From an uncultured archaeon (GTDB lineage Archaea; Asgardarchaeota; Thorarchaeia; Thorarchaeales; Thorarchaeaceae): a DNA stretch of 64,000 nucleotides. The stretch covers positions 224,001-288,000 of the forward strand of contig CAZLEV010000002.1 of the NCBI GenBank assembly GCA_964558645.1, in the 5' to 3' direction. The translations under genes were made by a program, and so were the position numbers. Positions 2 through 23,235 of the stretch are shown piece by piece; position 1 is the stretch's first letter; every line of letters begins with the position of its first letter. The notes under the pieces are model-generated. The model saw nothing but the letters and a program-made list of their open reading frames with translations. It was not told the DNA's origin and ran no database searches.

Positions 2-3000
2 TCTTGGATCGTCTATACTGGTCCGTTCGTTTTGACAGGTGACGGAACCTATACTGTCTACTACTACTCCATTGATATGGCAGGCAATGTTGAAGAAACG
101 AAGTCAATCGGGGTGGGAATCGACACTGAGGCTCCAGAAACATCAGCTGGGATTGAGGGAGTCAAAGGGAACCAGCAATACTATCTCTCTGAAGTAACCG
201 TGACGATAACGGCCTCAGACGCGACATCAGGAGTTGACAGTATCTGGTATTCGTTCGATCAAGAGACATGGAGTCTCTATGATGCGCCATTCACCGTGAC
301 TATGGAGGGGGAGACTGTGTTCTATTACTGGGCCATTGACAACGCAGGAAATGAGGAACCGATCAAATCGACCACCATAGTCATTGACACATTACCGCCA
401 GTCACAACCGTACAGCTTGAGGGCGAGAGTACAGAGAGCGGGTGGTTTACATCAGAGGTCCTAGTGACACTATCCGCAACCGACACCGAATCGGGGGTGG
501 AGCAAACTGCATACAGTTTCGATGGCGAGGCCTGGTTGGTATATGATTCACCCTTCACATTTTCCCTGCCCGGAGTTACAACTGTCTACTACAAATCCAT
601 AGATGTTGCTGGGAATACAGAGGTCACAAAGACTGTGGAGATACGGATAGATGGAACACCGCCGGAAACCTCCATAATACTGACTGGCGCCAAGGGATTG
701 AATGAGTGGTATATCTCGGAAGTAGAGATCTCCCTCATCGCAACAGATGCAGAGGGATCACAGGTTGTAACCGCCTACAGTTTCGATGGAGAGAGCTGGA
801 TCATCTATACCGAGCCTTTCGTGATTTCAACTGAGGGACTCCATATCATCCATTACAACTCTACCGATGAGGCAGGGAACGTCGAAGACACTGATACGGA
901 GACCGTCCGAATAGACTTGACACGGCCGGAAGGAAGCATACATCTTATGGGCCAAGAGGGGACGAGCGACTGGTATCTCTCGGACGTGGAAGTCACAATC
1001 ATAGCCACAGATTCACCATCAGGCATCCTTCATGTACGGTACAGTCTGAACAATGGACCGTGGATGGACTACAACGGACCCTTCACCATAACAACAGAGG
1101 GTTCCAATTGTGTGGAATGGGAGTTGGTTGACCGTGCCGGTTGGATGTTGAATGGCTCGTTCAGCGCGAGTATAGACAAGACTCCGCCAACTACATCTCT
1201 GAGCTACGAGCAGATAAGCGGCATGGGCTCGATTGTGAATCTGACCGCAATCGACTCTGTTTCAGGGCTGGCCGCCATCAGCTATAGTACAGATGGAGTC
1301 ACTTGGTCAACATACTCGGAGCCCTTCCTTCTCAGCGAAGGGGGAATCGTGCCGGTCTACTTCAATGCGACAGATGTGGCTGGTAATGTAGAAGAGCCAA
1401 AGATGGGGCTTGTTGAGGTTGATGTCCTTCCACCGGAAACAAGCATCAGCCTTGATGGCGATCTCGGTCTGGACGGTTGGTACGTTTCTGACGTCATTGT
1501 GAGCCTATCTGCAGTTGATGATCTCATGGGTGTTGACCGGATTGCATATAGCTTCGATGGTCTGGTCTGGATCGAATACTCGAGTCCCTTTGTTATCACA
1601 GATGATGGCCTCACGGTCATCTACTTCAATGCAACTGATCTTGTGGGAAACATGGAGGACACCAAGACAGAGAAGGTTCGCATTGACAAGACTGCACCAA
1701 CAACGACGCTCACAGTCTCACCAGAACCCTACGGTACGGATCCCATTTTCGTTACCACTCTCTCTGAGTTCGAGCTTGAAGCATTTGATAGTCTGCCGGG
1801 TTCAGGAGTGGAACGGACGGAGTATCGGATAGCTGAGGGTAGCTGGATTATCTACGACAGGCCATTCGTTATGGACTCGATCGGGCAGTACGAACTTCAT
1901 TACCGTAGTATCGATGTGGCGGGGAATGAGGAACGTGTTCAGTCAATCACTATCATCGTCAACGGAACGTCAATCCACTATGTAGGGGAAACATCTGGGG
2001 TCTATTCAGATCCAGCACACTTGACGGCAACCCTTGTTGACCTCGCTTCGCAGTCTCCGATAGCGGGAGCCACTGTCTTCTTTTCGATAGGGAACCAAGT
2101 CGTCTCGGCCATCACTGATAGCGACGGCAGTGCAAGCGCAGTCCTCATACTTGAGCAACCAGCAGGGGTGTACACAGCCACGGCGCTGTTTGATGAGGGA
2201 GATGTCTATCTTGCTTCTTCAGACCAAACTGACTTCGTCATACATCGCGAGAGCGCTGAAGTATACTACACAGGCTCGACTGTAGTACCCTCAACAGCGG
2301 AATCGATCTGGCTGAGAGCAACCGTATTTGATGATGACGACGGCTACTGGGGAGATCTGACAGCTGTATACGTGACATTCTGTATCTATCTCACGACAAA
2401 CGATGAACTCTCCTTGTTACAGAGTGTCGGGCCATATGCAGTTGAAATGACCAGCATTGAGGGAGTAGGGACAGCGGTGGGAGAGATACCAAACCTTACA
2501 GAAGGCGAATATCTCGTTGTTGTCATCCTCGAAAAGGAGTATAACAGCTACTACGAAGCCCCCGACTCCGAGGGAGTCAGGGTTACTGTGTTCGAGCCGA
2601 CCCGCGATTTTGTCACAGGGGGAGGGTGGATCTGGGACGAGAATGAACAACGAAGCCACTTTGCGTTCGTCATCCGATATGATAAGACAGGCGTGGCAAA
2701 GGGGCAGGTTGTTTATACCTATATAGAAGGTGATTGGTTACATATCGTCAAGAGCAGAGCGATATTGGGCCTTGCGATTGAGGAGGAGCATGCATTCTTC
2801 GAGGCAACGTGTTTTATCGTCAAATTGAACCTGCGAACCGGCTGCTTGATCTGGACCAATGAGGAGTACAGGCTCAGAATTGATGTCTGGGATAAAGGCA
2901 AACGTGGGAGAAACGATATCTTCCAGATTCGTATCCTTGATCCCAATGGCATAGTCTATCATGAAAACGGGTTCGATCCCAGTGGAAACCTTGGTGGAGG

Positions 3001-3067
3001 AAACATCACAATCCATTACAGCGGGAAGAACCAGATGCATTGCTGCAAAAGAAAGAAACGCAGATGA
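2..3067 (+). CDS. Large surface/secreted protein with tandem Ig-like (OmpL47-type) repeats and a C-terminal VTGGGWI-type domain; 5'-partial
   Basis: Frame is open from base 2 (SWIVYTGPFVLTG continues the repeat). At least 7 full ~88-aa repeats D..PPET...G..GWY.S.V.V...A.D..SGV....YS.DG..W..Y..PF.....G...VYY...D.AGN.E. Confidence 0.85.
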   Translation, partial: SWIVYTGPFVLTGDGTYTVYYYSIDMAGNVEETKSIGVGIDTEAPETSAGIEGVKGNQQYYLSEVTVTITASDATSGVDSIWYSFDQETWSLYDAPFTVTMEGETVFYYWAIDNAGNEEPIKSTTIVIDTLPPVTTVQLEGESTESGWFTSEVLVTLSATDTESGVEQTAYSFDGEAWLVYDSPFTFSLPGVTTVYYKSIDVAGNTEVTKTVEIRIDGTPPETSIILTGAKGLNEWYISEVEISLIATDAEGSQVVTAYSFDGESWIIYTEPFVISTEGLHIIHYNSTDEAGNVEDTDTETVRIDLTRPEGSIHLMGQEGTSDWYLSDVEVTIIATDSPSGILHVRYSLNNGPWMDYNGPFTITTEGSNCVEWELVDRAGWMLNGSFSASIDKTPPTTSLSYEQISGMGSIVNLTAIDSVSGLAAISYSTDGVTWSTYSEPFLLSEGGIVPVYFNATDVAGNVEEPKMGLVEVDVLPPETSISLDGDLGLDGWYVSDVIVSLSAVDDLMGVDRIAYSFDGLVWIEYSSPFVITDDGLTVIYFNATDLVGNMEDTKTEKVRIDKTAPTTTLTVSPEPYGTDPIFVTTLSEFELEAFDSLPGSGVERTEYRIAEGSWIIYDRPFVMDSIGQYELHYRSIDVAGNEERVQSITIIVNGTSIHYVGETSGVYSDPAHLTATLVDLASQSPIAGATVFFSIGNQVVSAITDSDGSASAVLILEQPAGVYTATALFDEGDVYLASSDQTDFVIHRESAEVYYTGSTVVPSTAESIWLRATVFDDDDGYWGDLTAVYVTFCIYLTTNDELSLLQSVGPYAVEMTSIEGVGTAVGEIPNLTEGEYLVVVILEKEYNSYYEAPDSEGVRVTVFEPTRDFVTGGGWIWDENEQRSHFAFVIRYDKTGVAKGQVVYTYIEGDWLHIVKSRAILGLAIEEEHAFFEATCFIVKLNLRTGCLIWTNEEYRLRIDVWDKGKRGRNDIFQIRILDPNGIVYHENGFDPSGNLGGGNITIHYSGKNQMHCCKRKKRR

Positions 3068-3561: not shown

Positions 3562-3719
3562 TGCACCTGCCCACTTGACCTTGTTCGTAAAAGACTTGTC
3601 AATTGCCTCAATCGATTGCGCAATACAGACCTGTCTCTATGTTGTCCACAATATCCCTATAAAGATTCAAAACGATAAGCAATACAGCGCTGCCTTCCAC
3701 AGAGAAGGAATGAAAGGTG

Positions 3720-4826
3720 ATGAGGAGAAGTCCCCGCAGGCAATTCAAAGTCTGCCTGATAGGCGACGGTTATGTGGGCAAGACGTCAATCAGGCAGGAG
3801 TATCTGGGGAAGGGGTTTAAGGCAAGCTACATCCCCACCCTCGGAGTCGATTTCGCTCAGAAGTCGTTGATGTACGATGACAAAGAAACGCAACTTGTGA
3901 TATGGGATATCGCAGGGCAGCCCCTCTTCAAGAGCCTCCGCCAGAAGTACTATCAGGGCTGCAGCGGCATAATCCTCGTTTATTCTGTTGTGGACAGGAG
4001 CTCCTTTGACAACGCCTCAAAGTGGCTTGTTGAGGCCTACGGCTTCATGGGAGAGCTCCCACCCATAATAGTAGCGGCAAACAAGATAGATCTGCGATCA
4101 AACCGGCCAGAAGACGAGATAGTCACTTATGAAGAGGGGAAAGTCTTCGCGGAGAAGTTCAGTCAGAAACTGAATGCACCGGCCATTTTCATAGAAACGT
4201 CTGCACTGACAGGGGAGAACATCGAAGAGGCGTTTCAAGAACTGACAGAAATGATGGTTGAGAGAGTCGAGAGGCGCCTCCAAGGACTCAGAGAAGAATC
4301 GGCATCGACGATGCCAGAACAGGCCGCAGATACTCAAACCAGAGCAGTTGAATCGACAGAGACCTCTGCGTCAGGAGATTCAATGGGTTCGACCACTGCA
4401 AATACCGCACCCTCTGAGGCGGATTTTGACCCCGTGACCTCACTCATGAGCGACTCACCTCATCTACAGGAAGAGCAGATTGGAGAACATATGAGCAGAC
4501 TGCTCCAGTTGCGTAGTGAACTGAAGAGTGCAGAGGAAGAAATGGCACACCTCACCTCTCAGTATGAAACTAGGCTCTTGGAACTCAGAAACACCGTCCA
4601 TGTCAAGAAGCTGATGTATGAGCACCTCCAGACACAGATCAAGGAAACACGACAGGAGTGGTCTGATGCCTATGAGGAGTATGTGAAAATAGAGGAACAC
4701 AAGAACAGAGAGATAACACGACGGGGTAAGCAGATCGAGAGCATCCGAAAAGAAATAGAGCGTATAGGAAGGACAATAAGAACGAGGGTCGGCGACCTCG
4801 ATCTGAGAAAGGTTACTGGGTCATAG
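3720..4826 (+). CDS. Rab-like small GTPase with low-complexity linker and C-terminal coiled coil
   Basis: G1 GDGYVGKTS, G2 YIPTLGVDF, G3 WDIAGQ, KYYQG, G4 NKIDL, G5 ETSALT; heptad-rich C-terminal ~120 aa. Confidence 0.93.
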   Translation: MRRSPRRQFKVCLIGDGYVGKTSIRQEYLGKGFKASYIPTLGVDFAQKSLMYDDKETQLVIWDIAGQPLFKSLRQKYYQGCSGIILVYSVVDRSSFDNASKWLVEAYGFMGELPPIIVAANKIDLRSNRPEDEIVTYEEGKVFAEKFSQKLNAPAIFIETSALTGENIEEAFQELTEMMVERVERRLQGLREESASTMPEQAADTQTRAVESTETSASGDSMGSTTANTAPSEADFDPVTSLMSDSPHLQEEQIGEHMSRLLQLRSELKSAEEEMAHLTSQYETRLLELRNTVHVKKLMYEHLQTQIKETRQEWSDAYEEYVKIEEHKNREITRRGKQIESIRKEIERIGRTIRTRVGDLDLRKVTGS

Positions 4827-7058: not shown

Positions 7059-8858
7059 TCAATGCTGGAAATAGGGGCTATCTATATCACTCTGGTCTTC
7101 GAATCCAACATCATCCAGCATGGAACCCATGGGTTGCGCACCACATGTCCACGATAAGCTGACAGTTCCATCTTCCTTGAAATCAAGTACTACATCCGGA
7201 AGGTCACCGAAGAGATTATGGTCGGCCTCCAGTACATCCTGATAGGCACCAGTCAAGCCAATCAGAAAATAGCCAACCTCGGCAGGGTCGGCCACAGGTA
7301 TGCCGGTGATCACTCTGTTCCTCGAACTCGTTATGAATCGATTGTCCTTGCTTAGTATCGGCTCATCAGGAGTGTGCCTAACGACAAAGGGAGAGATCTC
7401 CCCGTCACTGTCACAGGTCATGTCCACGAGCCGGACCGTTGCTGCAGGGTGTTTGTTGTGTCCAGAGAGAGGAATGACAGGAAAGTGCTGCTGAACAAAG
7501 ACATGGTCGAGACAGCTGTTGAAGACACTGAAATTACCTATCGAAATATAGTCCGGCTGCATGATCCAAGCGTAGAGATTCGCAGGCACGTGAATCCCTT
7601 TTTGCACAATACGTTTTCTAAGGATTGTCTTCAACAGAGTGACGAGTGTCTCGCGTTCAAGTAACTCGTCTAAGTCTCCCGTGGGCGTATCTGGTTCAAT
7701 GATCTCCCGCCAGATTGCATAGATAGCATCTTCACTCTGTGCTGCCTCAATCTTCTCTCTCCAACGAGCCAAGAGGGGATCTGACAAGTCAATCTCGGGC
7801 AGAAGACGGCGGGTCTCAATCACTTCCACAAGTATCATCGAACTCTGTGCAGTGATGGCTCTCCCCGCCTCTGTCATGATGTCCGGGTGATCTTCTGCAC
7901 CCTTCCGCTCACAGACATCCTGGATGGCTCTTAGAACCGTATTGAAATATACTGAAATGGGGTCCTTCGTAAAGAGACTCTCGTAATCAACCGGGATACC
8001 ACCACCCAAGTCTATGGTATCGAGCGCCCTGTAGCCCCTCTCCTTGAGAGAGAAGAATACTTCGGCCATATATTTTCCAAAATCGTGCATGTTTGTCTCA
8101 AGGTTGGTCAGCTGCGAGCCAATGTGAGCGTGGATTGTCCGAACATCGTCAAGGAGGCTGTTCTCTCTGAGGATATCTGTCACTTCGAATAAATCCTGAA
8201 CTGAGAGTCCGAACTTTGAATACCTACCGCCTGAGTGATGCCAGTGGCCGCTGGACTTGACGTATGGTTTGACTCTAAGGGCCAAATCGATATCACCGGG
8301 TTCGAAGAAATCAACCGCCAGATGCACTTCAGGAATGCTTTCGAGACAGACAAGTACATTGTGTCCAGCTTCAGATGCCTTCTTGGAGATGGTGAAGTAG
8401 TCTCTGTCTTTAACCCCGTTGCAGAAAATCAACCGATTCTTGTCTTCGCCGATAGCCCTCACGACCAAGAGCATTTCAGTCTTCGAGCCTGCTTCCAAGC
8501 CGTATCTGATGTCTGAGTTCAAGATGGTCCTGATGCAATCTACCTGCTGGTTAACCTTCACTGGGTAGAGAGGTTTGTACTCACCCTTGTACCCCTCTCT
8601 CAATCTATAGGACTCGAAGGCGTTGTTTAGTCTTCGAATCTTCATTGTTATGAATTGAGGAACACGGAGGGTGAAGGTAGAGGTATACCCCACTTCGGAG
8701 GAGTACTTACGGCGGACACGTTCTATCAAGTCTTGAAAAGGGAAGAGCCGGTCATCGAACTTGAGGCAGAGATTCCCGTCGGAATTGATGTCGAGGAAAT
8801 CCAAGTCACCACGGCCAACACCATGTATGAACTTGGCGTCCTCAACAGACCACATCAT
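7059..8858 (-). CDS. speA: Biosynthetic PLP-dependent arginine decarboxylase (bacterial SpeA type)
   Basis: WSVEDA N-terminus, PLP-lysine motif YPVKVNQ, GLEAGSK, CNGVKD, SKFGL, HAHIGSQ, DLGGG, EAGRA, NFSVF, DMTCDSDG, GAYQ...HNLFG. Confidence 0.9.
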   Translation of the reverse strand: MMWSVEDAKFIHGVGRGDLDFLDINSDGNLCLKFDDRLFPFQDLIERVRRKYSSEVGYTSTFTLRVPQFITMKIRRLNNAFESYRLREGYKGEYKPLYPVKVNQQVDCIRTILNSDIRYGLEAGSKTEMLLVVRAIGEDKNRLIFCNGVKDRDYFTISKKASEAGHNVLVCLESIPEVHLAVDFFEPGDIDLALRVKPYVKSSGHWHHSGGRYSKFGLSVQDLFEVTDILRENSLLDDVRTIHAHIGSQLTNLETNMHDFGKYMAEVFFSLKERGYRALDTIDLGGGIPVDYESLFTKDPISVYFNTVLRAIQDVCERKGAEDHPDIMTEAGRAITAQSSMILVEVIETRRLLPEIDLSDPLLARWREKIEAAQSEDAIYAIWREIIEPDTPTGDLDELLERETLVTLLKTILRKRIVQKGIHVPANLYAWIMQPDYISIGNFSVFNSCLDHVFVQQHFPVIPLSGHNKHPAATVRLVDMTCDSDGEISPFVVRHTPDEPILSKDNRFITSSRNRVITGIPVADPAEVGYFLIGLTGAYQDVLEADHNLFGDLPDVVLDFKEDGTVSLSWTCGAQPMGSMLDDVGFEDQSDIDSPYFQH

Positions 8859-10297
8859 TCCTCCTCCTCTGCTTCATCGATAAGAACATCCATCAGGCTG
8901 TCAAATGCCCGGGATAGGTCACCAATCTCGTCACCCCGAGATGTCTGTTTGACGTTGAGTTTCAGCTCTAACGGTTCAATAGAACTCTTGGTGAACTTCA
9001 CCACTGCAGCCTTTCGTATTCGTTCCATTATCTCCTGCAATGGTCCTGTCACCGTGCCTGCAACCCAATACCCAAGAATGCCTGAGATGATTATACCAAC
9101 CATCCCCACATACATGATCTGCTCAATTGTGAGTCTTAGAGTGGATGTGATCCGATTCTGAAGCAATGGAATTGCCTCCAAGACCTCATCGAGGGGGACT
9201 ATCAGCACACAGATGTATCCGCTCTTGCCGACAGGGGTATACACAAGGAGTCGTTCTTCTACTCCTCGCCGGTATTCAAGAGAGCCGTCTTCTCCTGAAG
9301 TGATTGCATCAATCTGGAGGAGTGTTAGCGAATCTGATTCGACTGCACTGAATTCGGGAAGCCCCTCTTCATATGCAGAATCGGGTACTTCAGGATGTGC
9401 AACTACCAGACCATCGCTTTGAATCAGAGTTGCGTAGCCATTCTCATACACATCTATGTCCAAGACGCGATTCTTGATGTCTTGGATTGTAATGTCTCCA
9501 GCGATGACACCTAGCATCTGATTGTTCTCATGGAACACAGCCTTACCGATCGATATCAGAAGCACTTCGTCTATCGGATCATAATATGGTTCTACAAAGA
9601 CGATGTCCCCATCTCCTGCTGCAATCTCAAGATACCAATCATCAAGAGTGGGATACCAGGGGTCCAGCTGCCTCTCTGCATCAGTTCCTCCTAGGATACT
9701 CCCGGGGTAGTTGATGAACATATCATTGTCTGCGAATGTGAAATAGAGCCATCTGAACTCCGGAACTCGATCTCGGATAGATCTGAAGATATTGTCCATG
9801 TTGGACACAAGGCCAAGGCGTTCTGAAGAGGCGCCTGCGTAGGTTGCCCAATTCGAGCTGTCAGACCCGGGAATGTACCAGCTGCTATACTCCCAAGAAA
9901 CATTGATTCCATAGTCCGGGTCAAACTCTATGTCGGCAGGATGCGGACCTTCGGAGGGGTTTTCGAAGAAATAGTCGTAATAGGTCTCACGGGCGAAATA
10001 GGTATTCTCATCACTGAAGAGGCGTTCTATCTCTTCAGCCATGCTGATGACCATTCCTTCAGCAGTGGTCAGTTTTTGGTTTATCACATTTGATGTGGTG
10101 ACGCCTGTGGCCAGCATATCATTGATTGCCTGCCCCTTGAGAGCATCTATGCTCCGAGAAGTCGTTGTGTCACCTATCAACACTCCAAACCCCATTGAGA
10201 AAGCAGTTGTCAGAGCAACAGATGCGGTTGTGATTACCAGAAAGGCCACCAGCATTGTTCTCTTGAAGCTAGTTCCGGTTGTTCTATTCTTTGCCAT
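8855..10297 (-). CDS. Membrane sensor TM-dCache-TM-HAMP with no output domain
   Basis: Two hydrophobic segments; Cache motifs FRWLYF...FINYPG, DDWY, EPYYD, GVIAGDIT, GYATLI..DG.VVAHP; HAMP ending GDEIGDLSRAFDSLM, then stop after ~11 residues. Confidence 0.85.
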   Translation of the reverse strand: MAKNRTTGTSFKRTMLVAFLVITTASVALTTAFSMGFGVLIGDTTTSRSIDALKGQAINDMLATGVTTSNVINQKLTTAEGMVISMAEEIERLFSDENTYFARETYYDYFFENPSEGPHPADIEFDPDYGINVSWEYSSWYIPGSDSSNWATYAGASSERLGLVSNMDNIFRSIRDRVPEFRWLYFTFADNDMFINYPGSILGGTDAERQLDPWYPTLDDWYLEIAAGDGDIVFVEPYYDPIDEVLLISIGKAVFHENNQMLGVIAGDITIQDIKNRVLDIDVYENGYATLIQSDGLVVAHPEVPDSAYEEGLPEFSAVESDSLTLLQIDAITSGEDGSLEYRRGVEERLLVYTPVGKSGYICVLIVPLDEVLEAIPLLQNRITSTLRLTIEQIMYVGMVGIIISGILGYWVAGTVTGPLQEIMERIRKAAVVKFTKSSIEPLELKLNVKQTSRGDEIGDLSRAFDSLMDVLIDEAEEEE

Positions 10298-10311: not shown

Positions 10312-13056
10312 TTAGAAGTCCACCTGTGTTCCTCCCATCTCGAGTTGAGTTTGCATCTCGTCCTCGATGCCTTCGAATCTCTGAAGAATTCCTTCCTGTT
10401 CTTTGCCAGCCTCTGAAACCGGCAGGTACGTGGCACCTTCAATCCGCTTGCACATTCTCTCTAGGACCCGTTCGTGATCTGAACTGCACATGACTCCGAT
10501 GATTCGCAGTTTTATATCACCCTCCAAACGATTGGCGAACCGAACGATAGAGTCTTCATTATGGGTCCTTGAAGAGTTGTCCTCGCCATCAGTGAGTGCG
10601 ACAATCCACCGCTCAGCATTCTGTTCGTTGGCAATGTTCATGAGAGCCAGACCGAGTGCGTCATAGAAAGCTGTGGCCCCGCCAAGGCGAAGCGCGCGGG
10701 CAATCTCCTTCCTTGCAGTAGAATAGTCTGGGCCCAATGGTGCAAGCCTGCGGAGTTCACTGACAACAGTGTCGAATGCCAACACACCAACACTATCATC
10801 AGGTTGCGCCACAGCATCAACCATCCTCTGAGCACCTGCAACTGCCGCCTTTATTCTACCGCTCTGCCCCATGCTCCCCGATTTATCGATGACGAAGACG
10901 ATGGCACGCCGCACTCGATGTCTCACAGTGGAACCCAGAATCTTCTCCGCCTGACGACGGATTTCATGACTCGGCTCACCCATATCTTCAAGAACATCAG
11001 CCAGAAGGGAGAGCGATCTGCCCGCAAGAGGCCACTCCTCATTCTCCTGTGACATGTTGGCAGCCTCAACAAGATCAGACCGGGCATCTTCGTACATTGC
11101 CATCTCGTAGTACATCATACCTCTGTGATAGTACACATAGGATTTTGACCGTTCATAGTATGTTCCTTCAAGAAGCTCAAGCGCCCGGTCAAACATCTCT
11201 CTGGCTTCATCAAACTCCTTCAGGGCCATCTTACAGACCCCGATGGTGTCGAATTGATTGGCCATGCCTCGATTGTTTCCCAGTTTCTTGTTGATTTCCA
11301 ATGCTTCCTCCAGATGGGTCAGGGCCTTGCGGTAGTTCTCCCTCTTTGGTGACATCTCGAGGGCGCCGAAGTTGTGCATGACATCGGCAATACGCACCTG
11401 AGCATCCTTTCTTTCTAGGTCAGTCTTTGCTTCTTTCAGCATCTGACGGGCTAGTCCTTCTGCAGATTGATACCTCGCCGATGCCTCCTGCAGTTGGCCT
11501 CTTTGTCTGTGAACATTTCCAATATTGAGGTCTGCAGCCTGGATGCCTTGAATCACCTTGAAATCGACACAGAGTTGTCGAAGCCGAGTATACGTTTCTA
11601 GAGCAAGTGCCAAGTTTCCTCTGATGAACTCCTTGTTGCCAGCTCGCATCGAGTCTTGGAGATTCTGAATTGCCTCCATGGTGATCTGCAGTTCCTTATA
11701 CCGCAGGTCATGTATGGGAACCATTCCAGTCAAGTCGCCACGGCTCATATTGATCAAGACATCTGTGGCTTGTGCAAGTGGTTTGGCCATCTCTTCGCCT
11801 TTTCTGGCCGCATATTTCGACGAAACATAGATTGTGACTGCTACACAGCCAACAAGAATCCCGATGATTATCAGGCTCTGAAAGCCAATCGCTGCGGAGA
11901 GAGCGAGTGCAGCTTCAATCACATCCGTTTCAGGAGTAACCGTACACAGAACCATACCGGTCGTAGGGACTCTCTCAAATGTTAGATACCATTTTCTGCC
12001 TTGCTTCGTATATTCAATCTGGCCACTACTGTTTGTCAGAATGTCAGGGAGAATAGAGGAGAATGCATCAGCCTCTGAAGATGCGGAGCCACCAAACTCA
12101 GCATCATAGATATCTTGGCCTTCAGCCGTAAACGAGGGGTGTGCTATCAGGCCCCCGGCGGTTCCAAGAAGGAAAGCATACCCGTTCTCACTAATCTCCT
12201 GAGAGAGTACTTCGTTGTTAATTGTGTCAAGAGTCACGTCAGCGGAAACAACACCAATCAGCGTGTTGTTGTCGAATCGGATGGGCCGGCCCATGGACAA
12301 TACAAGGCCAGTGGACGGATCACCATAGGGTTCTGTGACAGCAATGGAATCATCCAAGATATCGGCAGCGTTGAGATACCATTCCTCTGAATTGGGATCA
12401 TAATCCTCTCCTTCTCCATACCAGTCCAAGAAGTATTCCAGATTGTCATAGGGGTAGTTCCTGAATAGATGTCGATTCGAGATTGAGAGGTCAAAGCCCA
12501 TATACAGCCAGATATAGTCCGAACTCATTTCATGAAGCGACTGGAATATGTTGTCCATATTGGACGATGTGTCCAAGACATAGCGCATATCATCGTCCCA
12601 TTGGAATGGGTCGTCGTCAATGTAGTAGTCTCTAGGCATGTAGTAACAACTGACATCAAACGATATGCTGTCCGATTCATACTCATCGATGGATTGCAGA
12701 TTAGGGACTGTATAGCCCGTATTGGCGAGCTCAAGACTGGGATTCCAGAAGTAAGAGTGACGCGGGCTAGCATCATACCGTTCGTTGAATAGATTCTCGG
12801 CATAGTCCTCCATCATGTAGACACCATGGAAGTACTGCTCTATCCGCTCCTCAATGAAGGTGGCAGTATCAGCTGTTACCCTCTGCAGACTTCCCAGTTC
12901 CTCCTTAGTCAAAGCCTCTGCGGCTTCAGCCGTGTTCTGTTCTGACATGAAATACACGCTAGAAACCATGTATGAAGCAATCAGAAGCACGGAGATGATA
13001 ACTGAAGCGCTAAGGCCTCTTGTAACTTTCTTTGTAATACTCCAGGTCTCAAACAT
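10312..13056 (-). CDS. Membrane receptor TM-dCache-TM-HAMP-TPR-VWA
   Basis: Cache YIWLYMG..RNYP..YDPNSEEWY..EPYGD..GVVSAD; HAMP KPL...GDLT; several TPRs (LNIGNVHRQRGQLQEA, HNFGAL, DTIGVC, YHRGMMY); VWA MIDAS IDKSGSM / GGATAFYDAL / LTDGED. ATG 13056 has a GGAG upstream. Confidence 0.88.
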   Translation of the reverse strand: MFETWSITKKVTRGLSASVIISVLLIASYMVSSVYFMSEQNTAEAAEALTKEELGSLQRVTADTATFIEERIEQYFHGVYMMEDYAENLFNERYDASPRHSYFWNPSLELANTGYTVPNLQSIDEYESDSISFDVSCYYMPRDYYIDDDPFQWDDDMRYVLDTSSNMDNIFQSLHEMSSDYIWLYMGFDLSISNRHLFRNYPYDNLEYFLDWYGEGEDYDPNSEEWYLNAADILDDSIAVTEPYGDPSTGLVLSMGRPIRFDNNTLIGVVSADVTLDTINNEVLSQEISENGYAFLLGTAGGLIAHPSFTAEGQDIYDAEFGGSASSEADAFSSILPDILTNSSGQIEYTKQGRKWYLTFERVPTTGMVLCTVTPETDVIEAALALSAAIGFQSLIIIGILVGCVAVTIYVSSKYAARKGEEMAKPLAQATDVLINMSRGDLTGMVPIHDLRYKELQITMEAIQNLQDSMRAGNKEFIRGNLALALETYTRLRQLCVDFKVIQGIQAADLNIGNVHRQRGQLQEASARYQSAEGLARQMLKEAKTDLERKDAQVRIADVMHNFGALEMSPKRENYRKALTHLEEALEINKKLGNNRGMANQFDTIGVCKMALKEFDEAREMFDRALELLEGTYYERSKSYVYYHRGMMYYEMAMYEDARSDLVEAANMSQENEEWPLAGRSLSLLADVLEDMGEPSHEIRRQAEKILGSTVRHRVRRAIVFVIDKSGSMGQSGRIKAAVAGAQRMVDAVAQPDDSVGVLAFDTVVSELRRLAPLGPDYSTARKEIARALRLGGATAFYDALGLALMNIANEQNAERWIVALTDGEDNSSRTHNEDSIVRFANRLEGDIKLRIIGVMCSSDHERVLERMCKRIEGATYLPVSEAGKEQEGILQRFEGIEDEMQTQLEMGGTQVDF

Positions 13057-13060
13057 ATGT

Positions 13061-14521
13061 CTAACTCCCTTGCTCACTCAACAATTTGATAATCTCATCA
13101 ACTACTCTTTCAAGCTCTTCCTTTGACTCGAAAGCGAAGGATTTCGTGTCAATGAACTCGCCTGCAATCTGCCCTTTGCCACGCAGCAGAATAAGCGCTC
13201 TACGTATGGTCGCTGCGTCGAGCTCATGGTCTACATCAGGATCCTGTAGTGCGGCCTTCATATCAAGGAGGTCGCCGAACTCGATCTTGTTACCCGAAAC
13301 CACACTGGATAGTAATTTCCTTGCATCACGTTTTGACATCGACGGGGTGACCAAAGCGCCCCTCAAGCCAGTGAACACGAAAGTTCTACCATCGTCTTCA
13401 AAGTGACCAGATATCATCTCACGTCTAACCATCTCCTGCAGCTGACGGCGTAGGTTGTAGACAGCGGGACGGGGAAGTGATCGCCTGATGACTCTGTCAA
13501 GCTCCCTCAAAGTGATGCGGGGATTTAGTGATGTCACAGACAGTATGGTCTCACTGATGAATTCATCAATCTGCTGTGGCTGTAATGCATCCAGTATAGC
13601 CCCACAACTCGCACAGCTCGGCGTTTCTGGCGACACTGGGGCACCACAATGACCGCATCGAATAGCCCTCCGATAGACAGTTTCCTTCGTAGAAGATATC
13701 TCCTCGATGACTCGACGAGTGAGTGAAGACATCGCATTGCCTTTGACACGATATATCTCTAGGGCAGGAAGCCGTGTTCCGATAGCCAAGTAAAGGATGT
13801 CACTACGTGGGTGCCGATCTGCGTCAATGGCAAATGGGCGCTCTGAAAGATCCAATTCCTGTACCAGACCCCCACCCATATCCCAAATCCTCAGAGTACT
13901 CGACTTGTCCCCTGTGGCAAACAGTTTGTCGTTCTCCAAGTTCAGGACTGTACCTACTCGTATCTTCGAAGGAACCGTGAACTGTTTCAACAAGTAGCCA
14001 GCTGCAGATAGGATGCTGATATTGCCGCTGCGCTCCATCACAACTATCTCATATTCCGGATCATCCGTGATGTTCTCTAATCTGACAGAAACAACGGGTG
14101 ACGGAAACGATCGTGTAAACAGCTTGATGTCATCGTTCCACAAGGACACGGTATTATCGCGCATGGCAGCTGCAAACTCGTCCGCATAGTCGCCATCAAT
14201 ATCGGCCGCATCACAGGTTATGACCGGACTAGACTTTGCTATATGGTAGATAATCTGCCCTTTGTTGCCAATGACTATAACACAGTCCTTCGTCCCTGCA
14301 ACAATGTCGTCATAACCGTCAGCATCGATATCACCGATGGCTACGGTTCTAACCTTGGAGGTCCATTTTCGAGAACTTGTTTCTTTCCCGGCAGGAGAGA
14401 ATACTTTGAGTTTCTCGTCGTAGTCGATAGTGTATATCTCGACGCCCCTCTTTGTGGTTCTGACAAAGATGTCGTATATCAGGGACTCTGTATTCCTTAT
14501 TGATGTACGACTAATCTCCAT
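13061..14521 (-). CDS. FG-GAP-like beta-propeller + Zn ribbon + two PCI-like winged-helix domains
   Basis: GDIDADGYDDIVAG, ADIDGDYADEF, ENITDDPEYEIVV repeats and ATGD...LRIWD; CGHC...CASC; ITLRELD...LQEMVRREMISGHFED and TIRRALILLRGKGQIAGEFID. Start chosen at ATG 14521. Confidence 0.72.
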   Translation of the reverse strand: MEISRTSIRNTESLIYDIFVRTTKRGVEIYTIDYDEKLKVFSPAGKETSSRKWTSKVRTVAIGDIDADGYDDIVAGTKDCVIVIGNKGQIIYHIAKSSPVITCDAADIDGDYADEFAAAMRDNTVSLWNDDIKLFTRSFPSPVVSVRLENITDDPEYEIVVMERSGNISILSAAGYLLKQFTVPSKIRVGTVLNLENDKLFATGDKSSTLRIWDMGGGLVQELDLSERPFAIDADRHPRSDILYLAIGTRLPALEIYRVKGNAMSSLTRRVIEEISSTKETVYRRAIRCGHCGAPVSPETPSCASCGAILDALQPQQIDEFISETILSVTSLNPRITLRELDRVIRRSLPRPAVYNLRRQLQEMVRREMISGHFEDDGRTFVFTGLRGALVTPSMSKRDARKLLSSVVSGNKIEFGDLLDMKAALQDPDVDHELDAATIRRALILLRGKGQIAGEFIDTKSFAFESKEELERVVDEIIKLLSEQGS

Positions 14522-14680
14522 TTTGATAGATTGTACATTTTGAGCATATAAACAATGACTAAGATTTTCCAGTTTGAGAGCTGAAGATAGCTCCTGTATC
14601 AATGGATATATGATGAATCAGAGCAACGGAAGTTGAATCCGATCATTGTATGTCAGACTAGAGGACTCGTGAGGTTCAGA

Positions 14681-16388: not shown

Positions 16389-16460
16389 TATCTGCTATCC
16401 AACACTCTAGCACCAACATAGAAATATGTGGCAGCGCAATACCCACGATAGTTGGCCGAT

Positions 16461-18020
16461 ATGAGTATCATCAGCAAGACTGTTCTTCTGCTTGGCGCAT
16501 CGGGATCAATGGGATTCGAGGCATTCAGAGAGCTCTGGGCAAGAAGGGTGGAGGACAGACGACGTCGTTACAAGATAGTCCTCTTGCTTCGTCCGTCTAA
16601 GAAGAACAAGAGACTCTTTGCACCGTTTGAAGAAGAATGTGGCATCGAGAGTATCGGCGGTAGAGGATGTGTTGAGGGAGGTGGGCTTCGTATAGTCTGG
16701 GGAGATGCTACAGCGTATCCCGATATGCTTGAGGCTGTCCGTGACGTTGATTGGATACTCTGTCCGATGGCGTTCATCTCTCCTGCTGCGGATCATGACC
16801 CTGAGACCTCACAAGCAGTCAACACAACTGCCATCCAGTATATTATTGATGCGATCTATGAGCATGGGGGGCAGGACCATGTGAAGCTTGTCTACATCGG
16901 GTCAGTTGCCGAAACCGGTGACCGTTTGCAAGAGATTCATATGGGACGCGTCGGAGACCCACTGAAACCAAGTGTATTCGATTTCTATGCAACCTGTAAG
17001 ATTGCTGGCGAGAGAGCTGTCATCGAGTCAGGACTGAAATACTGGGTGTCTTTGCGTCAGACCTACATTGCGATACCCAACCCAATGAGTCTGATGGATC
17101 CTATCATGTTCCACCAGCCGATAGACACGTGCATCGAGCTGAACACCAGCAGGGACGCAGGGCGAGGGCTGGTGAATTGCCTTGATGTCCCTGATGACTC
17201 AGACTTCTGGCGTCGAGTCTATAATATGGGAGGAGGGCCAACATGTCGCATTGTCTACCACGACTACTTGCGAGATATGTTCAACCTCTTGGGGCTGGGT
17301 GATTTCAGAGAGATACTGGAGAGACGTTGGTTTGCACTGAGGAACTTCCACTGCCACTATTTCGAAGACAGTGACGTCCTGGATGAGTATATACACAACT
17401 GGGGCGACTCTATTGAGGACTATTACCAGCAAGTCCTGAACAACCTCCCTCTGTCTGTCAGGTTGGCCAGATGGTCCGCCAACATACCGGGACTGAGAGA
17501 GATGGTTAAGTGGGCTGCACGAAGAAGGATGAAGGATATGGTCTCACGGAAAGATGGGACGCTCTATTGGTACGAGCAGGACATGGTACAGAGGATTATT
17601 GCATTCTATGGTTCATTCGAGGCATACGAGAGGATTGGAGATTGGAATTCACCAGACATGCCGAACCTGAATCCTGAGTGGAAGAGACTGCATCACGGAT
17701 ATGATGAGTCAAAAGAAACGCTTGAGATAGAAGACCTGCAGGGAGCTGCTGAGTTTCGAGGAGGGTTTCTTCTCTCGGCCGCGTGGAGCGGGAGCATGTA
17801 TGAGAAACTCGAATGGAGATGTGCCTTTGCACACAGGTTTGAGGCAAGCCCGTACTTGGTTCTCAAGACCGGGCACTGGTGTCCCCAGTGTGCTCCTCCA
17901 CCATGGGACTACGGCAAAATCGCGGAAGTCAATCCGTTCTTCGCACAGATATGGTACTCCAATCACTCAAGAGAGGAACGAAACTTCTATCCAGCAGATT
18001 GTTACAAGGACGTACTCTAG
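16461..18020 (+). CDS. NAD-dependent epimerase/dehydratase (extended SDR) with C-terminal Zn-ribbon
   Basis: LLGASGSMG, YATCK catalytic YxxxK, C-terminal WRCAFAH...WCPQC. Confidence 0.8.
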   Translation: MSIISKTVLLLGASGSMGFEAFRELWARRVEDRRRRYKIVLLLRPSKKNKRLFAPFEEECGIESIGGRGCVEGGGLRIVWGDATAYPDMLEAVRDVDWILCPMAFISPAADHDPETSQAVNTTAIQYIIDAIYEHGGQDHVKLVYIGSVAETGDRLQEIHMGRVGDPLKPSVFDFYATCKIAGERAVIESGLKYWVSLRQTYIAIPNPMSLMDPIMFHQPIDTCIELNTSRDAGRGLVNCLDVPDDSDFWRRVYNMGGGPTCRIVYHDYLRDMFNLLGLGDFREILERRWFALRNFHCHYFEDSDVLDEYIHNWGDSIEDYYQQVLNNLPLSVRLARWSANIPGLREMVKWAARRRMKDMVSRKDGTLYWYEQDMVQRIIAFYGSFEAYERIGDWNSPDMPNLNPEWKRLHHGYDESKETLEIEDLQGAAEFRGGFLLSAAWSGSMYEKLEWRCAFAHRFEASPYLVLKTGHWCPQCAPPPWDYGKIAEVNPFFAQIWYSNHSREERNFYPADCYKDVL

Positions 18021-21160: not shown

Positions 21161-22051
21161 TCACATCTTGGTAAAGAGCCATTCTATGAGACCTGTACCC
21201 TCTGCATCGCTACCGAGTAGCTTGTGTATTGCCATCTCTTCAAAGAGCTCAGTACGACCTCGGCCAAATTCCCGTTCAAATCGGACGAAAGAAGTCGGAG
21301 AAATGACCTTGGATTTGAATCTGTACTCATCATCGGTCTCAGTGATGACCGTGGTGAGGGCCCCAACTGGCATTCTGACTGGATCATCTACGAATTGAGT
21401 CTCGACATCCACAGATCTGACCTGAGCATATCCGTCCTTGGTTGAGAGTCCTCCAGACGGGTGGGCCTCTCCGTCCACAATGTCACGACGAAGACCAATA
21501 GAGAAATCGGGAAACTGAGCATGAAATGCATACCAACTATCTATGTGCCAATCACGAGCCCCCCAACTCTTGTCACGCTGCCCCAATCCGTTCAGTTGAA
21601 GGGTTCGTCCGTCTTCGATGTTGATAATCCCGGTGACCCGCCCCGATTGCTCGAAATGGCCGGCCCACGAAGTGCCACTCCCTCGCCCGAAGTCGAATGG
21701 CGGAAAACGGCCCTTCCATCGAATGTCTGCCTCCAGCGTGGGCCCCGTGAAGTTGATGGACCAATCACTCAAGGGTTTGTTCATCTTGAAGGACAGGTTC
21801 CCATCATCTAGAGCCTCCCCCATTTCGTCGGGAACAGAGCCCTCGGGCTCCATGAAATACACCTCTCGCCTGTCATCATAGAAGAGAGCAAATACAAACT
21901 CTCGTTTGTCCACGTTGGGTAGCAGCCCGATGGTTGTGAATCCGGATACCCCAGAGTCAGAATCCACCCAATTGAAGTAATAGCTCTCTCGCCAGTCTGG
22001 TCTCTCTCCAACCTTGTGCAGGTATTCGGCACTTGAATCGAGTTCAGTCAT
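21161..22051 (-). CDS. Beta-rich hypothetical protein (AttH/lipocalin-like double barrel)
   Basis: WRESYYFNW, HFEQSGRVTG, GQRDKSWGARDW motifs. Confidence 0.6.
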   Translation of the reverse strand: MTELDSSAEYLHKVGERPDWRESYYFNWVDSDSGVSGFTTIGLLPNVDKREFVFALFYDDRREVYFMEPEGSVPDEMGEALDDGNLSFKMNKPLSDWSINFTGPTLEADIRWKGRFPPFDFGRGSGTSWAGHFEQSGRVTGIINIEDGRTLQLNGLGQRDKSWGARDWHIDSWYAFHAQFPDFSIGLRRDIVDGEAHPSGGLSTKDGYAQVRSVDVETQFVDDPVRMPVGALTTVITETDDEYRFKSKVISPTSFVRFEREFGRGRTELFEEMAIHKLLGSDAEGTGLIEWLFTKM

Positions 22052-22077
22052 CTTTGGAGTTCTCCGATGTCGATTGT

Positions 22078-23235
22078 TCACTCAGGCAGCAGGTAGAATG
22101 TCGGGTCAGACTCCATCTCATCGTCGAGCCTGAACAGTCGAATGAAGGCAGGATCGGCCTCTTCGTCCATGAAGAACGGCACATGTTCTTCAATCACATC
22201 TGATGAGAGTTTCCAGTCTACTTTGTTGGTGATACCCACTCTGTCGGTGAATCGTTTGAATCCGCGCCAGTAGACCTCAGCACCAGCAATCAACAGCCTT
22301 CGTTTATCCCACTCAGCGAACTTCATGTATAACTCAGCTTGGGCCGCATCAGCTGCCTCAGCATACGCAGGGAGCTCGTCAAGTCCAAGACGTACCACCT
22401 TGTCGCCCTTCTTTGTGTACGCACCGATTCCCGTAACATACTTGGAGTAGTCACCTGGCTCAATAGTCATCGTTCCTATGTCATTGAATTTTGCATCCAC
22501 ACCCTTGATAGTCATTGCAACTCCAAGGGACGAGGTGGGCAGTTTTGCCTCAGTATCTGACCAAGGCATCCAGAGATCGCCCTGACCGTCATGCATGTTT
22601 GTGTATTCTGAGAAGACAAGAATCTCATCCTCGTTCACAGAGTAGGGCCCATGATCGATGATTTTCGCCCTTGCTTCACACTCGTCCAGGAAGGCATACA
22701 AGTCCACAGAACCCATTATTCGACGCGTCTTTTTGACCTGATCTTCTGAAACGGGTTCCATGATGCTCATCAACCAATCAACGGTCTCATTATCCATTGC
22801 ACGGTTGACTGCTCCCGATGCTGCGATGGTCGGCTCACCCGAGTTGAAGTAATTCGTTGCCAAACGGTACCAGTTTTCCAACATGTACTTCCATTGCTCT
22901 TGACGCTCAGCTGGCTCTTGTGACGGGTCACCATCCAGTTTATTGAAGATAACGCCCATCCTTGCCAATGCGTAGTATAGCCAGAGGTAGCTGATGGATA
23001 GACCATGTACCTCGGATAGCAGCGTCTTGCTCTGCTGCGCAAGCTCCTCGGGGGATATCCGCTCCCAGACCTGACTCGTGACATCATAGAGTCGTTCATA
23101 GGTCTGATAGAAACCGACACAGATGTATTCATTGACCGGAAAGAGCTCCGATTCAAGCAGTCCCCGTTCAACAAGAATGTCGGAGAATACACCGGATAGA
23201 TGTGCAATGAGTTTGTTGATTTCTCTGGTTTTCAA
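22078..23235 (-). CDS. Hypothetical protein, candidate substrate-binding subunit of the split dikinase
   Basis: 385-aa ORF with protein-like composition, divergent from the PEP-utiliser genes. The function is inferred from context only. Confidence 0.7.
   Translation of the reverse strand: MKTREINKLIAHLSGVFSDILVERGLLESELFPVNEYICVGFYQTYERLYDVTSQVWERISPEELAQQSKTLLSEVHGLSISYLWLYYALARMGVIFNKLDGDPSQEPAERQEQWKYMLENWYRLATNYFNSGEPTIAASGAVNRAMDNETVDWLMSIMEPVSEDQVKKTRRIMGSVDLYAFLDECEARAKIIDHGPYSVNEDEILVFSEYTNMHDGQGDLWMPWSDTEAKLPTSSLGVAMTIKGVDAKFNDIGTMTIEPGDYSKYVTGIGAYTKKGDKVVRLGLDELPAYAEAADAAQAELYMKFAEWDKRRLLIAGAEVYWRGFKRFTDRVGITNKVDWKLSSDVIEEHVPFFMDEEADPAFIRLFRLDDEMESDPTFYLLPE

Follow-up and report, generated by a model that had tools for sequence, protein, structure and literature searches.

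The gene considered here lies in a stretch of 64,000 nucleotides from an uncultured archaeon of the Thorarchaeaceae (assembly GCA_964558645.1, contig CAZLEV010000002.1, positions 224,001 to 288,000; the whole stretch is called the window below). It encodes a protein in which a predicted extracellular dCache_1 domain is followed by HAMP, TPR and VWA domains. In our interpretation, which we hold with modest confidence, this protein and a shorter one together form a transmembrane receptor that works without a kinase, is conserved across Asgard archaea and has regulated protein docking as its output; the gene considered here would encode the long subunit. To our knowledge, prokaryotic Cache-HAMP sensors end in enzymes or chemotaxis signalling domains. 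The receptor family described here ends in pure protein-docking modules instead of enzymes, and its set of partner genes is kept from Thorarchaeia to Hodarchaeales and Loki-like lineages. Signalling by recruitment is typical of eukaryotic receptors. In the archaea nearest to eukaryotes, the family would thus be a tangible example, open to experiment, of transmembrane signals passed on by regulated recruitment and without a kinase.

Domain organization and topology of the receptor

Read from a GTG start codon, the open reading frame (ORF) at 10312..13077 of the minus strand comprises 921 amino acids (aa), and residue numbers refer to this version with the GTG start at 13077. An ATG at Met8 moves the end to 13056 and gives 914 aa, which is the length of both nearest homologues of the window receptor. 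The original prediction, made from the letters of this DNA, had proposed the order TM-dCache-TM-HAMP-TPR-VWA (TM, transmembrane helix), and this layout was borne out by Pfam matches, hydropathy, an AlphaFold2 model and the family alignment. The Pfam dCache_1 profile matches the window receptor at residues 222-379 (E 6.9e-19, 68.8 bits against a cut-off of 45) and was matched in all of 26 relatives, with TM helices on both sides of the domain. Matches of TPR_12, TPR_1 and TPR_2 extend over residues ~480-680, followed by VWA_2 (E 5.8e-13) and VWA (E 1.2e-10) at 726-877.

The N-terminus carries a charge of +5/-1 in the hydropathy-based topology, which together with the two TM helices places the Cache domain outside and HAMP-TPR-VWA inside. 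Hence, the TPR-VWA part of the receptor is predicted to be cytoplasmic. An extracellular VWA domain of the alpha2delta type was rejected on this topology, and the definition of alpha2delta/CACHD1 does not apply to the protein. The metal ion-dependent adhesion site (MIDAS), in general a DxSxS motif with a Thr and an Asp on three loops of a Rossmann-type fold, is complete (D731-x-S733-G734-S735, T802, D830) and invariant in 26 family members across the phylum. [quoted passage not shown]

The claims on the central part call for qualification. HAMP domains consist of two amphipathic helices joined by a connector right behind TM2, with a conserved Pro in the first helix and a conserved Glu ahead of the second. 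Pfam HAMP did not match the window receptor itself. It matched the aligned segment in 9 of the 26 relatives (best E 2.3e-9), and in this segment Pro433 and Glu462 are invariant in the 26-member alignment and the model forms a helix-loop-helix. The assignment as a putative divergent HAMP domain therefore rests on the relatives, not on the window protein. A TPR solenoid is present as predicted, with about 5.5 repeats in the model in place of the six or so that had been counted.

The AlphaFold2 model of residues 428-921, based on a 28-row alignment, reached a predicted local distance difference test score (pLDDT) of 85. In this model a helix-loop-helix after TM2 is followed by ten to eleven TPR helices, a linker helix spanning 704-719, a Rossmann-type VWA domain and a disordered tail. 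The second HAMP helix continues directly into the first TPR. The VWA domain is nearest to CLCA1, ITIH4 and BatB by sequence and to CMG2 and BatB by fold, and Foldseek searches with the 494-residue model resulted in generic TPR and VWA matches only. These likenesses assign no function to the VWA domain or the TPRs. Two insertions of roughly 20-30 and 20 residues, behind the DNSS loop and ahead of the final strands, extend the VWA domain of most Thor orthologues; both are missing in the window copy and its two nearest relatives.

Conserved partner genes at Asgard loci

The receptor gene is part of a tightly packed minus-strand operon of four genes that code for a propeller protein, the long receptor, a short co-receptor and SpeA. 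Two of the gene junctions are gaps of 4 and 14 nt; at the third, the start of speA and the stop of the co-receptor gene share an ATGA. The co-receptor ends shortly past its HAMP domain. The arginine decarboxylase matches NCBIfam PRK05354 with E 1.8e-104 and 350.6 bits, just below the cut-off of 369. Many archaea have a pyruvoyl-type arginine decarboxylase instead of the SpeA type, which depends on pyridoxal 5'-phosphate (PLP).

Partner genes were scored at 55 loci with profiles built from the alignments of this analysis. Among the family labels used below, f1 stands for Thor, f11 for Hodarchaeales, f10 for Heimdall, and f21-f23 for Loki-like and Sigyn. A short Cache-HAMP co-receptor gene follows the receptor gene at every one of these loci whose contig continues. 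The propeller gene adjoins the receptor gene in 32 out of 55 loci, belonging to f1, f11, f21, f22 and f23; it is absent at the loci of f8, f10, f13 and f14 and beside the second copy in a Hodarchaeales chromosome. A genome-wide search in f13, f10 and f8 genomes, whose receptors lack His704 (see below), gave no propeller orthologue, with a score of 3e-91 in a control genome. speA adjoins the receptor gene in f1, f11, f8, f10, f13 and f14, not in f21-f23. In the Thor family, 68 genomes contain both receptor and propeller and 14 contain neither, five of the latter being 93-98% complete. In only 4 genomes of this family are the two genes discordant, and at least 3 of these are fragmented or interrupted by contig ends. 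The receptor is thus one gene of a conserved module and not an isolated oddity.

Receptors of ~575 aa that lack the Cache domain (TM-HAMP-TPR-VWA) were also found in one large family labelled Loki/Hermod (loci L032, L033 and L086-L093). In 5 of these 10 loci, the receptor gene is accompanied by a stub of 154 aa that matches only the TM-HAMP end of the co-receptor profile, and then by the propeller gene. The trio of receptor, stub and propeller can therefore persist without a Cache domain. Its retention of a TM-HAMP stub points to the HAMP domains as one contact between long and short subunits.

Phylogenetic trees (FastTree and a 31-row quick tree) split the family into subfamily A, comprising Thor, the first Hodarchaeales copy, f8, f13, f14 and the Loki-like sequences, and subfamily B, comprising Heimdall (f10), the second Hodarchaeales copy and unlabelled metagenome sequences. 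A single-contig Heimdall/Hodarchaeales chromosome (G065; loci L021 and L022) holds both subfamilies. Its copy A combines a Glu pocket and His704 with a propeller gene and speA next to it, and its copy B has an Arg pocket and lacks His704 as well as a propeller or speA neighbour.

Predicted docking of the propeller protein

The propeller protein gave Pfam matches to FG-GAP_3, FG-GAP, BBS2_Mid (E 6.7e-7) and a Zn ribbon and contains no TM segment. It was modelled as a beta-propeller (residues 1-260, pLDDT ~90) followed by a helix, a Zn ribbon and two winged helices. The best Foldseek matches of the propeller were BBS1, BBS9 and G-beta, barely ahead of other seven-bladed propellers. The part located C-terminal to the propeller differs outside Thor, and the propeller therefore looks like a constant docking module.

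Residues 477-921 of the receptor were modelled in complex with the propeller protein alongside 3 controls. The pair reached a score of 0.69, and the best of the 3 controls scored 0.00. Among 80 solved complexes 58 came up to this mark, and among 110 mismatched pairs 2 did; the counts are rough because custom alignments were used. The runs shared at least 53% of contacts, and the pLDDT of the partner was at least 78. In the predicted interface, receptor residues 700-721 face residues 10-16, 34-35, 55, 58, 78, 99, 121, 142 and 252 of the propeller, the linker helix (His704, Arg707, Arg708, Glu711, Lys712) resting on the propeller top face. Tyr16 of the propeller is invariant, and position 34 is Tyr or Phe in all 26 propeller sequences (26 out of 26). 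An integrin-like contact between MIDAS and propeller, which had also been considered, was dropped, since the passing complex model puts the interface on the linker helix.

The presence of His704 follows that of the propeller gene: both were found at 32 of the 55 loci and neither at 21, His704 alone occurred at 2 loci, both at contig ends, and the propeller gene alone at none. The complex model supports binding of the propeller protein to the receptor without proving it. From this modelling, the propeller protein appears as the best-supported partner of the receptor and as a predicted adaptor.

Cache pockets and candidate ligand

HMMER alignments to solved receptors place Glu231 of the window receptor where PctA has its carboxylate-binding Arg126. 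The pocket of the co-receptor (WYPTLDDWY) has an Asp at this Arg position. Both pockets keep the Trp-Tyr pair, the Tyr of EPY.D and the distal Asp, of which Tyr and Asp are the ligands of the amino group. The dCache_1AA amino-acid sensors are defined by the motif Y....R.WY ... Y ... D, in which Arg binds the carboxylate of the ligand (Gumerov 2022). Receptor and co-receptor of the window fall outside this class, since Arg is replaced by Glu231 and Asp, respectively, while the remaining positions match. The dCache_1AM amine sensors are defined by an AM_motif whose features include a small insertion in the pocket and residues of an aromatic cage; among archaea, this motif is reported from Halobacteriota only (Cerna-Vargas 2023).

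Across loci, position 231 is Arg in 7 cases, none of them beside speA, and another residue in 36 cases, 23 of them beside speA. The receptors of subfamily B have an Arg pocket (YDPRCRPWY). Because the amino-group ligands are kept while Arg has given way to an acid, and because speA is co-transcribed, we propose a cationic amine as ligand. The amine bound by the window copy would probably lack an alpha-carboxylate, agmatine and polyamines being examples. The link to speA suggests how Asgard archaea might monitor polyamines.

Proposed mechanism and alternative explanations

In the mechanism that we propose, the long and the short subunit would pair via their Cache, TM and HAMP parts. Binding of an external ligand may be passed on by HAMP to the TPR solenoid fused directly to its second helix. 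With an amine as ligand, the receptor would monitor the product pathway of the co-transcribed SpeA. The output would be regulated protein docking and not catalysis. The linker helix, with His704 as a plug, would lie in the aromatic surface at the top of the propeller (Tyr16, Tyr34), and docking would either hold the propeller/Zn-ribbon/winged-helix protein at the membrane or release it. The variable C-terminal half of this protein would carry the downstream effect, possibly by DNA binding, and the invariant MIDAS may bind an acidic residue of a second partner.

Several points weigh against this mechanism. The complex score is the model's own confidence, and likeness to the common solved complexes of a helix or peptide in a propeller could explain part of it. 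The winged helices of the propeller protein were modelled only with moderate confidence (pLDDT 40-78), and DNA binding is a guess. The association of His704 with the propeller gene goes back to about two independent transitions on the tree, namely the separation of subfamily A from subfamily B and a joint loss in the f8/f13/f14 clade, and is supportive but not strong statistics. Some f21-f23 loci keep Glu231 although speA is missing there, and therefore an acidic pocket does not imply a link to speA. Finally, the MIDAS, which is the best-conserved feature, lies outside the predicted propeller interface.

The last of these points fits an alternative in which TPR-VWA serves self-association or lattice formation in a receptor-clustering scaffold, the MIDAS binds the acidic tail of a neighbouring long or short subunit, and the propeller protein is an accessory. 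The tail of the receptor family is conserved, acidic and aromatic (EVGG..DY or VEGF) and disordered in the model, and the Thor co-receptor ends in the acidic run DEAEEEE. Moreover, subfamily B and the f8/f13/f14 clade manage without a propeller gene. Outside Thor, however, the co-receptor tail is a mixture of Glu and Lys or is extended and is not reliably acidic, so that an acidic co-receptor tail was abandoned as a general ligand of the MIDAS and kept only as part of this alternative. Since the propeller is also co-retained and co-lost with the receptor, we consider a clustering scaffold rather unlikely.

Direct control of an enzyme appears somewhat less probable again. Here, the TPR or the VWA domain would bind SpeA and adjust the decarboxylase post-translationally to external amines, and the propeller protein would have a separate role. 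This could draw on the proximity of speA to the receptor gene in lineages that include those without a propeller gene (Thor, Hodarchaeales, f8, f10, f13 and f14) and on its translational coupling to the co-receptor gene in the window via the ATGA overlap. However, Loki-like, Sigyn and eukaryotic copies keep TPR-VWA and the MIDAS intact without a speA neighbour.

TPR and VWA combinations occur in Bat-type operons, and the VWA domain is nearest to those of CLCA1, ITIH4, BatB and CMG2, but a bacterial-type VWA system, be it a substrate adaptor of a MoxR-class AAA+ ATPase (BatA/BatB or RavA-ViaA type) or a vWA-based conflict or defence system, is very improbable, because no conserved ATPase or effector neighbour was found at the 55 loci, no MoxR-type (AAA_3) ATPase is encoded near the receptor, the nearest in its own genome being at C2:366228, ~130 kb away, and the receptor is a single-copy orthologue across the phylum that is linked to a housekeeping enzyme.

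Distribution among prokaryotes

A word-indexed search yielded 135 homologues, nearly all of full length (~914-965 aa) and with the same set of Pfam domains. All named homologues among these 135 are from Asgard archaea, mostly Thorarchaeota. The window's own genome contains one copy. Among 400 Asgard genomes, matches were obtained in 70 out of 85 genomes of the window's own family, and full-length matches at 24-36% identity in eight further family-level groups. Overall, full-length orthologues thus occur in nine family-level Asgard groups at 24-48% identity. When 185,579 species genomes of bacteria and archaea were scanned by pattern, 109 relatives were obtained, of which the best 80 are all from Asgard archaea. 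The titles among these 80 name Thorarchaeota, Heimdallarchaeota, Candidatus Hodarchaeum mangrovi, Hermodarchaeota, Candidatus Sigynarchaeum and Promethearchaeota. With the best 80 of 109 relatives of Asgard origin, the receptor family appears to be Asgard-only among prokaryotes, and the possibility raised at the outset that the layout is common in bacteria and has its closest homologues there was not borne out.

One member of the cluster is labelled Deltaproteobacteria (GCA_014382765.1, JACNJB010000432.1). It is located on a 9.4-kb contig of a metagenome-assembled genome that carries the pair of receptor and co-receptor genes. The contig may be an Asgard one that was binned wrongly, or it may hold a genuine bacterial copy. 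Its DNA gave no match in a search against the 400 Asgard genomes, which is uninformative on its origin. A 1299-aa multi-PAS protein is encoded next to the receptor pair on this contig.

Two further searches were restricted in use. A word-indexed search with the cytoplasmic part alone gave 6 weak matches, missed known short forms and was not used for the distribution. An exhaustive profile search gave 461,732 matches at E <= 1e-3, mostly TPR proteins, from which only full-span single-stretch matches were used.

Eukaryotic homologues and phylogeny

From the exhaustive profile search, followed by look-ups, homologues were also found in eukaryotic data. Two are from jakobids in EukProt, namely a transcript of Stygiella incarcerata coding for 941 aa and a gene model of Andalucia godoyi (ANDGO_00932, 930 aa). 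The third is a metagenomic relative of 988 aa on a 13.6-kb contig. These three proteins share 39-45% mutual identity and are 25% identical to the window protein over ~900 residues (E 1e-50). They have the layout of dCache, HAMP, TPR and VWA with two TM helices and contain the motifs DxSGSM and LTDGxDN. Two additional relatives are encoded on contigs of 25 and 32 kb with eukaryote-type genes; on one of them these are PEX11, D123 and a Drp1-type dynamin of full length (E 1e-49), on the other a PARP2-type enzyme (E 9e-78). Of the 6 proteins in the eukaryote clade, 5 have an Arg-type pocket similar to YDPRCRPWY; Andalucia reads YIPLCRPWF. On both eukaryote-type contigs and on the 13.6-kb contig, a gene of 496-534 aa adjoins the receptor gene and matches the profile of the co-receptor over its full length (E 1e-45 to 1e-62). 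The original prediction had put forward protist proteins with a Cache-TPR-VWA layout and had proposed a comparison with ciliates, oomycetes and chytrids. Such proteins exist in Stygiella, Andalucia and the two contigs with eukaryote-type genes; the named organisms are jakobids and do not belong to those three groups.

The co-receptors encoded beside receptors of the eukaryote clade have Pro/Tyr-rich tails with PPxY-like ends on L102 (7976-9574 (-), PPSY) and L101 (4985-6589 (-), PPTY). The L104 co-receptor (8381-9871 (-)) has an Asn-rich tail without a PPxY-like end, and archaeal co-receptors have short charged tails. In eukaryotes, motifs of the PPxY class are targets of WW-domain ubiquitin ligases.

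In the trees, for which all support values are from the Shimodaira-Hasegawa-like approximate likelihood ratio test (SH-aLRT) only, the eukaryotic sequences form one clade (SH-aLRT 96-98) within subfamily B (100), beside the Heimdall and Hodarchaeales copies; the exact sister is not settled by the trees. This placement is compatible with inheritance from a Heimdall-like ancestor as well as with an old transfer out of that lineage. The eukaryotic members seen are from jakobids and unidentified protists. On these sequence comparisons, with orthologues in eukaryotic genomes, the receptor as a candidate eukaryotic signature protein, a class that Asgard archaea share with eukaryotes and that is rare or missing in other prokaryotes, is a live hypothesis. 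The presence of the same receptor pair in protist genomes, branching with Heimdall-type copies, bears on the sensory equipment of the archaeal ancestor of eukaryotes and makes the pair a candidate signalling system common to archaea and eukaryotes. It is possible, though doubtful, that a two-subunit Cache receptor with TPR-VWA output was present in a Heimdall/Hodarchaeales-like ancestor of eukaryotes, was vertically inherited and survives in jakobids and a few other protists. This would represent a signature system at the level of receptors. It would also offer a possible origin of the eukaryotic Cache/VWA pairing in alpha2delta and CACHD1, which is now attributed to bacterial transfer and subsequent domain insertion at the last eukaryotic common ancestor. 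All eukaryotic dCache_1 proteins were stated to carry VWA as an insertion within Cache (PMC8915833), and the Cache-HAMP-TPR-VWA layout in protists runs against this statement. Our literature searches found no description of the receptor layout in Asgard archaea or jakobids.

Features of the receptor and other genes in the window

Coordinates of the receptor features and of the operon genes are given in Table 1. The operon is flanked on the opposite strand by unrelated genes for an HhH-GPD glycosylase and a protein with a methylguanine-methyltransferase domain. Upstream of the operon lies a region of 111 bp (14522-14632).

Table 1. Positions of operon genes and receptor features in the window
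Feature	Position	Strand	Basis or remark
Upstream gene: propeller/Zn-ribbon/winged-helix protein, 486 aa, without TM	13061..14521	-	Pfam, hydropathy, model
Long receptor subunit, "CTV"	10312..13056	-	914 aa from ATG
TM1, residues ~22-44, preceded by a Lys/Arg-rich N-terminus	12946..13014	-	hydropathy
Extracellular dCache_1 domain (predicted), residues ~45-398	11884..12945	-	Pfam and alignments to solved receptors
Pocket motif YDPNSEEWY, residues 226-234	12376..12402	-	alignment to PctA and PctC
TM2, residues ~399-421	11815..11883	-	hydropathy
Divergent HAMP (putative), residues ~428-486	11620..11796	-	family alignment, HAMP matches in relatives, AlphaFold2 model
TPR solenoid, residues ~478-698, structurally like the LGN/Pins TPR domain	10984..11646	-	Pfam, model, Foldseek
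Linker helix between TPRs and VWA, residues 700-721 (His704, Arg707, Arg708, Glu711, Lys712)	10915..10980	-	predicted propeller docking site
Cytoplasmic VWA domain (predicted), residues 723-913; tail 912-921 disordered in the model	10339..10911	-	Pfam, model, Foldseek
MIDAS loop 1 DKSGS, residues 731-735	10873..10887	-	family alignment
Short co-receptor TM-dCache_1-TM-HAMP, 480 aa, without output domain	8855..10297	-	Pfam
SpeA-type PLP-dependent arginine decarboxylase	7059..8858	-	NCBIfam PRK05354

Further genes of the window include that of a small GTPase of the Ras/Roc family (3717-4826 (+), Pfam Ras E 2e-42) with a C-terminal extension of ~190 aa, a type of protein typical of Asgard genomes. 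A 1011-aa protein (32-3067 (+)) contains bacterial Ig-like repeats (Big_13, Big_1, DUF7743) and is probably a surface protein. A protein with DUF7065 and DUF7064 is encoded at 21161-22081 (-), and a 522-aa ORF with a marginal 3Beta_HSD match at 16452-18020 (+).

Comparison with known systems

The closest likeness on the input side is to PctA, PctB and PctC of Pseudomonas aeruginosa and to Vibrio Mlp24 (PDB 3c8c), which have the same TM-dCache_1-TM-HAMP input and topology, and whose pocket scaffold aligns residue by residue. In contrast to these receptors, the window receptor has TPR-VWA instead of an output of the methyl-accepting chemotaxis protein, kinase, cyclase or phosphatase type, the carboxylate-binding Arg is replaced by Glu or Asp, and a dedicated paralogue without output domain is encoded alongside.

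Like the Asgard receptor, alpha2delta and CACHD1 combine dCache_1 and a MIDAS-bearing VWA domain in one polypeptide, and the Cache domains match CACHD1 (E 5e-7) and alpha2delta-1 (~1e-6) by sequence. In those proteins VWA is inserted inside dCache_1 and both are extracellular (PMC8915833); an extracellular VWA domain is also what the original prediction gave for them. In the window receptor, however, VWA is C-terminal, predicted to be cytoplasmic, and set apart from Cache by TM2, HAMP and the TPRs. No alpha2delta VWA domain appeared among the sequences that the window VWA matched.

The integrin head likewise pairs an FG-GAP-type propeller (alpha) with a protein that bears a MIDAS-containing VWA domain (beta I-like). 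A basic or His side chain is predicted as the plug of the aromatic propeller face in the Asgard pair, and integrins also plug the propeller face with a basic or His side chain. Unlike integrins, the Asgard pair is predicted to be cytoplasmic, with the contact made by the helix before VWA and not by the VWA body or the MIDAS. The likeness seen is one of shared folds.

The propeller itself resembles those of the BBSome subunits BBS1/2/7/9 and of G-beta (BBS2_Mid, Foldseek). Like G-beta, the protein is soluble and predicted to dock on a helix on the receptor side, although no BBSome or G-protein partners are encoded at the locus. In Escherichia coli, the regulator Mlc is held by the glucose transporter PtsG, a case of membrane sequestration of a regulator. 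This system is not homologous and is comparable in its working only: as there, a membrane protein would hold or release a soluble winged-helix protein in response to an external signal.

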